DNA of 49,376 bases from a virus (taxonomy: Duplodnaviria; Heunggongvirae; Uroviricota; Caudoviricetes), in IMG/VR virus record IMGVR_UViG_2909251562_000001. One strand, 5' to 3'. The position numbers were made by a program, and so were the translations under genes. Shown piece by piece: positions 48,235-49,376 of this stretch. Every line of letters begins with the position of its first letter. Positions within the stretch are counted from its first letter, which is position 1. The notes below the pieces were generated by a model, which saw nothing but the letters and a program-made list of their open reading frames with translations, was not told where the DNA came from and did no database searches.

Positions 48235-48305
48235 GAAGCCTGGAAAAAGTATCGGGTGTTGCTGAACCGTGTTGATACATCAACTGCACCTGATATTGAG
48301 TGGCC
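48235..48305 (+). repeat. 71-bp direct repeat, copy 1 (tfa 3'-end fragment with no start)
   Basis: 69 of 71 nt identical to 49284-49354; would encode [24 protein letters not shown] but has no start codon. Confidence 0.8.
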
Positions 48306-48381
48306 TACGAACCCTGTCAGGGAGTAATCATTGGGATTATGCCGCAGCACGTCTTAAGCAAGAACGTGCTGCGGTTGGATG

Positions 48382-49050
48382 CTATTTTTTCCCTGAAGCG
48401 GAAAACATTACTACAGTACCTTGAACCTTGGTTTTAACATTCTCGAAATGCTCTGAGAGTATATGTGTTAAGCCTTCTTCGGAATCTTTTGTGTTTGAAA
48501 AGATGCCTTTCTGATTGTAAATGCGCATCAGTTTTTGACCGAAGCTATTGTGCACAACTCCATCGCCAAGAATTGTGGCTCCGTATAGAGTTCCATCGTC
48601 AGTTAAGGCCTGCGCCGCATTGCGTATTACACAGCTTTTTGTAGATATATTTCCAGGCAGGCAGTGAAGAAGGTAAAACATGGAAATGGAATCAAATTGA
48701 CCATGTAACGCCGCGGGATAAGGATCAAAAACATCATGGCTAATTTTATGTTTAATTTTTGATTCCCCAGCCCTTGTAGATGCCGCGTTCAGGCTAGCTT
48801 CGTTCAAATCCATTAAAGATATCAGACTACTCTCAGGTACGTGAGTAAGGTAAAACCCAGTTCCAACACCAATATCCAGATGGTTGTTACCTAAATGTTC
48901 CAGAAAGTGTGGAAGAAGGTGTTCCTTTGTAGGACATCCCCATGCAAGCCGATTTGATACTCCCAAAACCCACCAGTCATAAAGCTTTAGGGTAAGTGGT
49001 GTGTAAATTTTAGCCCCATCATCTGTGTTTTTTTTCATTAATTTCACCAT
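48382..49050 (-). CDS. class I SAM-dependent methyltransferase (small-molecule type)
   Basis: 222 aa with motif I LDIGVGTG; no DPPY/NPPF-type DNA methyltransferase motif seen; AT-rich. Confidence 0.7.
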   Translation of the reverse strand: MVKLMKKNTDDGAKIYTPLTLKLYDWWVLGVSNRLAWGCPTKEHLLPHFLEHLGNNHLDIGVGTGFYLTHVPESSLISLMDLNEASLNAASTRAGESKIKHKISHDVFDPYPAALHGQFDSISMFYLLHCLPGNISTKSCVIRNAAQALTDDGTLYGATILGDGVVHNSFGQKLMRIYNQKGIFSNTKDSEEGLTHILSEHFENVKTKVQGTVVMFSASGKK

Positions 49051-49106
49051 GTTATAGTTTTATTTGTGAATTAAATCAATTGTGGCGATGAATTACAAGA
49101 GGTTAA

Positions 49107-49376
49107 ATGCTGCCGCAGCATAGCGATATTGAAATAGCCTGGTATGCTTCGATACAGCAGGAGCCGAATGGCTGGAAGACCGTCACCACACAGTTCTACA
49201 TCCAGGAATTCAGTGAGCATATTGCGCCACTTCAGGATGCTGTAGAGCTGGAGATCGCAACGGAGGAAGAAAACTCGTTGCTGGAAGCCTGGAAGAAGTA
49301 TCGGGTGTTGCTGAACCGTGTTGATACATCAACCGCACCTGATATTGAGTGGCCGGAAGAACCAGACACAATGTAA
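49107..49376 (+). CDS. small tail-fibre-assembly-like protein (Tfa C-terminal homologue)
   Basis: 89 aa ending ...[32 protein letters not shown]; stop at the window edge; carries copy 2 of the 71-bp repeat at 49284-49354. Confidence 0.6.

Follow-up and report, generated by a model that had tools for sequence, protein, structure and literature searches.

An invertible tail-fibre module and a truncated pin gene beside the ybcY-tfaX cassette of a lambda-like Escherichia coli prophage

The right end of the prophage

The stretch of DNA analysed here, referred to as the window, is the 49,376 nucleotide IMG/VR virus record IMGVR_UViG_2909251562_000001 (Caudoviricetes). It is 100% identical to a prophage in enterotoxigenic Escherichia coli (ETEC) strain TW11681 and in four other RefSeq genomes. 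The prophage is lambda-like, with a lambda-type integrase at 1-1131 and J, lom, and stf genes of lambda type, and its integration site is ompW, beside the trp operon. The region of interest is its right end, where ybcY, a gene for a class I S-adenosylmethionine (SAM)-dependent methyltransferase, is flanked by direct repeats and stands next to a truncated invertase gene, pin', and an invertible tail-fibre segment (Table 1). Comparison with related phages and prophages indicates that the ybcY cassette was in place before the junction with pin was formed.

Table 1. Features of the invertible segment and the pin-tfa-ybcY-tfaX region; positions are those of the window, and a full stop marks features given without a strand
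Feature	Position	Strand	Details and basis
Left inverted repeat	44700-44794	.	gix-like crossover site TTATCGAATACCTCGGTTTACAGGAA at 44706-44731
Tail-fibre assembly gene tfa (Mu U / P2 G type), currently joined to stf	45881-46411	+	Caudo_TAP, E = 1e-36
Alternative tail-fibre assembly gene tfa'	46440-46973	-	Caudo_TAP; PGAP annotation of identical sequence
Alternative fibre C-terminus stf'	from 46976 (unit 46440-47935)	-	gp37_C match; PGAP annotation of identical sequence
Right inverted repeat	47858-47952	.	gix-like site at 47921-47946
pin'	48001-48195	+	64 codons of a Gin/Pin-type serine invertase; TGA at 48193-48195
Residual pin codons (about 66-78) past the stop	48196-48232	+	base-by-base comparison
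Direct repeat copy 1	48230-48305	+	76 nt; sequence self-comparison
Startless lambda-type tfa 3' end	48233-48327	+	last ~31 codons and stop, in frame with pin'
Hairpin	48342-48374	.	perfect 11 bp stem, between the convergent tfa 3' end and ybcY
ybcY, class I SAM-dependent methyltransferase	48382-49050	-	intact open reading frame, 222 aa
ybcY promoter TTGATT-N17-TATAAC	49051-49079	-	motif located in the window
tfaX-like open reading frame	49107-49376	+	89 aa; AAGAGG ribosome-binding site
Direct repeat copy 2	49279-49354	+	76 nt; sequence self-comparison

A first-pass annotation of this region had described an oppositely oriented methyltransferase gene between repeats of a tfa 3' end, with a hairpin, a startless tfa fragment, and a truncated pin, and all of these are present. 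The two copies of the repeat are identical at 73 of their 76 positions (96%), and a 71 nt core (48235-48305 and 49284-49354) at 69 of 71, with 2 mismatches. A 50 nt core of the repeat occurs exactly twice in the window, against 0 occurrences expected from 100 shuffles. The upstream copy codes for a startless Tfa C-terminus, matching positions 104-130 of the 131 in the Pfam family Caudo_TAP, and the fragment is labelled 'missing N-terminus' by PGAP. The downstream copy closes the tfaX-like open reading frame (ORF), which matches Caudo_TAP at positions 75-130 of 131 and phrog_2341 over its full length (profile positions 1-86/88). Each copy of the direct repeat is a conserved 3' end, one belonging to tfa and the other to tfaX.

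When aligned with K-12 TfaX and full-length Tfa proteins, the C-terminus of TfaX varies by lineage, being truncated in some, frameshifted in others, and full in the window. TfaX thus looks like a degenerate, internally deleted second tfa paralogue that is decaying. In intact modules the repeat shared by tfa and tfaX is longer, at 227 bp in the related locus designated L018, where it takes in the stop codon and the hairpin, 157 bp in K-12, and 132 bp in PhiR26_1. The 76 bp repeat of the window is therefore the stump of an older, longer repeat and not a scar left by the arrival of the methyltransferase gene.

The arms of the hairpin, CCGCAGCACGT and ACGTGCTGCGG at 48343-48374, have a folding energy of -28.5 kcal/mol in context (z = -4.5). 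They lie 7 nt past the ybcY stop codon and 14 nt past that of the tfa fragment, and on the plus strand U6 comes after an extended stem. The hairpin matches, base for base, the 3' stem-loop of CssrB (Rfam RF02799), a Shigella small RNA (sRNA), and the remaining ~133 nt of the CssrB model are absent at this position. A second, diverged copy is found 3' of tfaX, just beyond the window, and in phages PhiR68_2, Kati, and Turner the hairpin marks the left edge of homology to the cassette. Most simply, the hairpin is a terminator that travels with tfa 3' ends. A RefSeq 'hypothetical protein' of 45 aa (WP_001309429.1, 48300-48437) spans the hairpin and overlaps the 3' end of ybcY on the opposite strand; it is probably a spurious gene call.

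The pin junction and the origin of the arrangement

Up to 48191 the pin stub shows about 94-96% identity with Mu gin and with P2-like pin. It covers only positions 2-73 of the 145 in the Resolvase N-terminal domain and includes no helix-turn-helix, and no intact invertase gene is adjacent to the segment. The bases from 48192 to 48236 still read as invertase codons, with TGA at 48193 and clustered substitutions. Within them, 48206-48236 resembles pinE of e14, from which it differs at 1 position; a pinR/pinQ-like assignment of the residual codons was considered and rejected on the alignment. The recombination junction is at 48233-48236, with a GGA microhomology at 48234-48236, and in each of the comparisons with K-12, PhiR26_1, 2G7b, and L018 the homology to their tfa-ybcY-tfaX genes begins at 48230. 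The pin stub and the tfa fragment share one reading frame (48001-48327), and the TGA at 48193-48195 is all that blocks a fusion of Pin residues 1-78 to the Tfa C-terminus.

A 308 nt probe across this junction detected it in 534 of 5,426 complete E. coli genomes, including ST131, NCTC86, and ETEC H10407, in the last of which the prophage is at potB. Seven intact close relatives of pin were sampled and all are P2-like or Mu-like, five being in prophages and two in phages P88 and Mu; no intact gin-type pin was found in a lambdoid context or next to the same repeats among these seven, in a search that was not exhaustive. The proposal that the methyltransferase was acquired here was to fall if the gene proved to be a conserved part of the tail-fibre locus, with intact pin variants carrying the same repeats. 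Its conservation in the locus is borne out, and the intact variants were not encountered.

The ybcY cassette is not confined to genomes with the junction. The ybcY gene is carried, at 98.6-99.5% amino acid identity of its product, by 14 phage records, all of them Escherichia lambdoid phages. In the viable lambdoid phages PhiR26_1, PhiR29/30/49, 2G7b, ev243, Kati, Turner, and PhiR68_2, ybcY comes just after the side-tail-fibre genes and is followed by tfaX. None of these has the gin-type pin stub, and their upstream fibre modules differ from that of the window. PhiR26_1 has the order stf - full-length tfa - ybcY - tfaX, and in 2G7b and ev243 the fibre genes beside ybcY are of another type. Sibling prophages, which share the ompW integration site, lack an invertase gene and are arranged as stf (1023 aa) - tfa (194 aa) - ybcY - tfaX. 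In PhiR68_2 there is an intact PinQ/R-type recombinase gene together with ynaE between tfa and the cassette. The order in this viable phage (locus L029, 1681-7522) is stf - tfa - PinQ/R-type recombinase - ynaE - hairpin - ybcY - tfaX - appY - ompT, which unites Rac/Qin-type and DLP12-type right ends in one genome.

Since the cassette occurs with both tfa 3' copies and without pin in the K-12 prophage DLP12, in viable phages, and in the ompW siblings, ybcY was not captured at the pin junction, as had been supposed; the direction of capture is reversed. On these alignments, the cassette pre-exists the junction and is the known tfaD-ybcY-tfaX unit of E. coli lambdoid prophages. The upstream tfa copy has also been cut elsewhere. 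In 2G7b the cut in the tfa fragment has another position and another fibre module adjoins it, and this cut and the hairpin-edged cassettes of PhiR68_2, Kati, and Turner are independent truncations of the same copy. The conserved 3' ends of tfa genes are known from the literature on tail-fibre mosaicism as joints at which fibre modules are swapped, and the independent cuts fit this view.

The extent of the replacement can be seen against the ompW sibling. The window is collinear with it over 41700-44307 and from 48230 onward, at 91% and 96% identity, and the 3.9 kb between (44308-48229) stand in place of 1,958 bp that comprise the 3' end of stf and most of tfa. The replacing DNA is 91-95% identical to the fibre constant part, the invertible segment, and the 5' end of the invertase gene of P2-like (P88; O103:H2 strain 12009) and Mu-like elements.

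The favoured model, which is held with considerable though not complete confidence, is that an invertible fibre module was spliced in beside a pre-existing ybcY cassette. The last genes of the ancestral prophage would have been the widely shared set of a tfa 3' end with hairpin, ybcY with its own sigma-70 promoter, and tfaX. A P2/Mu-type cassette would have taken the place of the stf 3' part and of about 160 tfa codons. With it would have come the fibre constant part, the invertible segment with its two tfa genes and two alternative fibre tips, and the 5' end of the invertase gene as far as codon ~78. The left crossover would be in sequence shared by stf and H, at about 44100-44310, and was probably homologous, since 44101-44310 matches both lambdoid stf and the P2-type H gene. 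The right crossover would have been an illegitimate one that used 3 nt of microhomology to connect codon ~78 of pin with codon ~163 of tfa; it would have shortened the upstream repeat to 76 bp and inactivated pin. The arrangement is ordinary phage mosaicism with an already known cassette. Its anatomy, junctions, and conservation, and the earlier existence of the cassette, are established by the comparisons above.

The alternative put forward in the first-pass annotation was that a phage with an intact invertase lost the 3' half of the gene through recombination between tfa 3' ends and gained a foreign methyltransferase gene, with the 71 bp repeats as the scar. There is a real junction, with pin truncated exactly where tfa-type sequence begins and its 3' part removed, and the methyltransferase gene is indeed oppositely oriented and somewhat AT-rich. 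The repeats, in contrast, are older than the junction; the same repeats, in longer form, flank the gene in phages and prophages that never had this pin. The pin junction does not involve the downstream copy. Synteny with the pin-less siblings that share the attachment site holds on either side of the insert, and every sampled intact relative of pin is in a P2-like or Mu-like element rather than a lambdoid one. This sequence of events is thus improbable.

A stronger competitor, although still one that is doubtful, is that the tfa and tfaX repeats arose when a unit of hairpin, ybcY, and promoter inserted in a single tfa with duplication of its target, so that tfaX would be no relic of a second tfa. 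Direct repeats do bracket the moron, and the inclusion of the stop codon and hairpin in the 227 bp repeats of L018 would suit such an event. However, about 35 N-terminal residues of TfaX lie outside the repeat, aligning weakly with an N-terminal stretch of Tfa and with phrog_3893, which suggests an internally deleted separate gene. In PhiR68_2, moreover, the cassette is 2 kb from any tfa and has the tfaX copy only, and in most relatives the two copies are only 85-88% identical. The repeated sequence might instead be an sRNA gene and not a coding remnant, as Rfam family IS009 (RF02111) scores above its gathering score on tfaX (122.2 bits against 117, 49130-49333) and matches partially on the tfa 3' end (48205-48284). 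This is very unlikely. The DNA under the match shares the reading frame of the conserved Tfa C-terminus, to which it is homologous across full-length proteins, and the RF02111 model is mostly unpaired sequence. The match probably reflects conservation of Tfa C-terminal coding sequence, which the family seems to model, and membership of IS009 therefore says little on function.

The YbcY methyltransferase

The ybcY product matches the Pfam families Methyltransf_12/23/25/11, and its residues 5-222 align with positions 1-218 of the 218 in phrog_2132 (E = 1.3e-156). A candidate start at Met5 (49038), giving 218 aa, follows a GGTGA, is conserved without exception in 36 homologues, and coincides with the start of the PHROG profile; judged by these alignments, it is probably the true start. 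YbcY has a SAM-binding motif of the form D/E-x-G-x-G-x-G, with motif I reading LDIGVGTG, and a Rossmann-like methyltransferase fold in its AlphaFold2 model (predicted local distance difference test score, pLDDT, 89.8). Compared with intact phage and prophage copies, ybcY is 99.4-99.9% identical at the nucleotide level, and the K-12 pseudogene copy is 99.1% identical.

The gene is on the minus strand inside a plus-strand late operon. It had been called AT-rich, which is true only to a mild degree, its G+C content being 41-42% against 44-51% nearby. The hexamers of its putative promoter (Table 1) are the same as those of a constitutive RpoD promoter reported from genomic SELEX (systematic evolution of ligands by exponential enrichment) for ybcY, in the H-NS-bound ybcY/tfaX spacer of K-12 (PMC3946193). 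With a predicted promoter of its own, a differing base composition, and an opposite orientation, ybcY has several features of a moron.

Phage-borne orphan methyltransferases are common, and YbcY could be a DNA methyltransferase that guards the phage from restriction or marks the lysogen's genome. The PADLOC search on YbcY found no credible defence-system match, and its very weak match to mad2 (E = 0.004) is the other point in favour of this role. A regular-expression search of YbcY found no DPPY-type or PCQ DNA methyltransferase motif, and there is no DNA methyltransferase among its top structural matches, so that this role is extremely improbable. The small-molecule and lipid class I SAM methyltransferases that resemble the YbcY fold are a PmtA-type phosphatidylethanolamine N-methyltransferase (8ys9), JHAMT (7ec0), RebM (3bus), UbiG (4kdc), and MM_2633 (3dtn), with only 12-21% identity to YbcY. 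These structural neighbours span many substrates. The sequence search of the PDB with YbcY gave only weak, non-specific methyltransferase matches, and the NCBIfam search gave no family-level match (best score 17.6 bits against a cutoff of 390). The fold matches and the lack of DNA methyltransferase motifs point to action on a small molecule or lipid rather than on DNA. A methylome analysis of the lysogen, which had been proposed as a check, is for the same reasons unlikely to help.

Orthologues of YbcY with 57-65% identity are found in Salmonella and Enterobacter as stand-alone, core-like chromosomal genes outside prophages. For this reason the phage gene looks like a captured enterobacterial housekeeping or accessory methyltransferase. 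The neighbours of these orthologues are unrelated and the genes are monocistronic, giving no clue to a pathway. In the literature on ybcY, tfaX, and CssrB no functional study was found, and the papers on tfaX concern the appY promoter island. The chances are about even that ybcY is a moron, expressed or silenced by H-NS in the lysogen, whose product methylates a small molecule or lipid. A more elaborate scheme is unlikely as it stands: YbcY, nearly invariant and always placed at the end of the side-tail-fibre locus of E. coli lambdoid phages, would be a lysogenic-conversion enzyme with a lipid of the host envelope or a small metabolite as the target of its methylation, for example in a PmtA-like N-methylation of phosphatidylethanolamine. 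It would thereby alter the surface or physiology of the lysogen, and the pin stub would be kept in ~10% of E. coli genomes for its Fis enhancer, so that co-resident invertases flip the orphan switch.

Several observations weigh against the reading given here, as to both the origin of the locus and the role of ybcY. The direction of the exchange, whether the cassette entered a ybcY-bearing phage or a ybcY end was joined onto a pin-bearing phage, rests on parsimony, and no intermediate was found. The pin stub is chimeric, being gin-like and then pinE-like from 48192, which implies at least one further exchange. On the ybcY strand the hairpin of the window has no U-tract, and the PhiR68_2 copy has U5. 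Generic consensus scans gave no promoter or terminator in the region under strict criteria; the ybcY promoter was missed because the last base of its -10 hexamer is C, and the empty scans reflect the strictness of the criteria and not absence. The structural matches of YbcY are flat (template modelling score, TM, about 0.6, at the low identities given above) and name no substrate. Only 1-4 substitutions, most of them non-synonymous, separate the ybcY copies of E. coli phages; the ratio of non-synonymous to synonymous rates (dN/dS) is therefore uninformative and selection on the phage copy cannot be shown. The K-12 copy, finally, is a pseudogene.

The orphan invertible segment and its relatives

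Upstream of the pin stub, inverted repeats with gix-like sites surround two fibre tips and two tfa genes, as in an invertible switch. The repeat arms are 95 nt long and 92% complementary, and the tfa gene now joined to stf is collinear with that of phage P88 at 94% identity. This prophage also occupies ompW in the sister ETEC strain WS1933D, where the pin stub is identical and the flanks agree with the window at 99.93-99.97%. In that strain (locus L028, 3836-7082), the DNA corresponding to 44706-47952 is inverted, with the breakpoints inside the gix-like sites. The differences at the ends are confined to the outer halves of these sites, as expected for a Gin/Pin-type exchange at the centre of the site. 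Over 44715-46598 there are 0 mismatches between the two, and over 46599-47806 there are 53 clustered mismatches, which suggests an extra patch exchange with a related cassette. The segment in H10407 is also in the opposite orientation. The orientation counts among junction-bearing genomes (134 and 215) are not clean, as the 80% coverage threshold also admits phages with an intact pin.

The segment has been inverted after pin was lost, and a recombinase supplied in trans is therefore implied. It is well established that Gin, Pin, Cin, and Hin can complement one another. The window keeps 190 nt of gin-like sequence beyond the right-hand gix site (gixR), and these are 94-96% identical to the genes gin of Mu and pin of P2-like phages. 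In the native geometry of Hin, the Fis enhancer is about 100 bp from the crossover site (PMC3798978). If the geometry here matches that of Hin, the retained 190 nt would include a Fis enhancer.

The prophage itself is probably defective, since gpJ is split by a frameshift and there is an IS66-family element inside. The tail-tip gene J is in two overlapping ORFs (38497-39192 and 39153-41975) with the PGAP label 'frameshifted', and the prophage is therefore probably unable to make infectious particles. The IS66-family insertion sequence is at 19403-22018 (~19.4-22.0 kb), and its three minus-strand ORFs match HTH_Tnp_1, TnpB_IS66, and DDE_Tnp_IS66.

As it stands, the arrangement matters little, having been annotated in E. 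coli K-12 for decades and recurring in thousands of genomes. It illustrates the textbook view of tfa 3' ends as joints for the exchange of fibre modules among lambdoid, P2-like, and Mu-like phages. YbcY is a very widespread methyltransferase, and the orphan segment shows that the host-range switch of a prophage can outlive its own invertase, depending on the recombinases of other residents.

The closest known counterpart of the ybcY cassette is in the K-12 prophage DLP12, where the order is tfaD - ybcY (a pseudogene on the opposite strand) - tfaX - appY - ompT, tfaD-ybcY-tfaX being b0561-b0563. The window resembles it in gene order, orientation, hairpin, and promoter hexamers, and is 97% identical to it over 48230-49353. 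DLP12 differs in having a full-length tfaD, a frameshifted ybcY, and a TfaX of 61 aa, whereas in the window the pin junction has left 31 codons of tfa, TfaX has 89 aa, and ybcY is intact. The fibre segment, for its part, is built like the G segment of Mu with gin, the segment of P88 with pin, and the P segment of e14 with pinE, all of which have gix-type inverted repeats around two fibre tips and two tfa genes in opposite orientation. In Mu, P88, e14, and the window the invertase gene starts about 50 bp past the right repeat, with identities of 91-96%. The window differs from these three switches in that its invertase is down to 64 translatable codons and its cassette is grafted onto an stf of lambda type.

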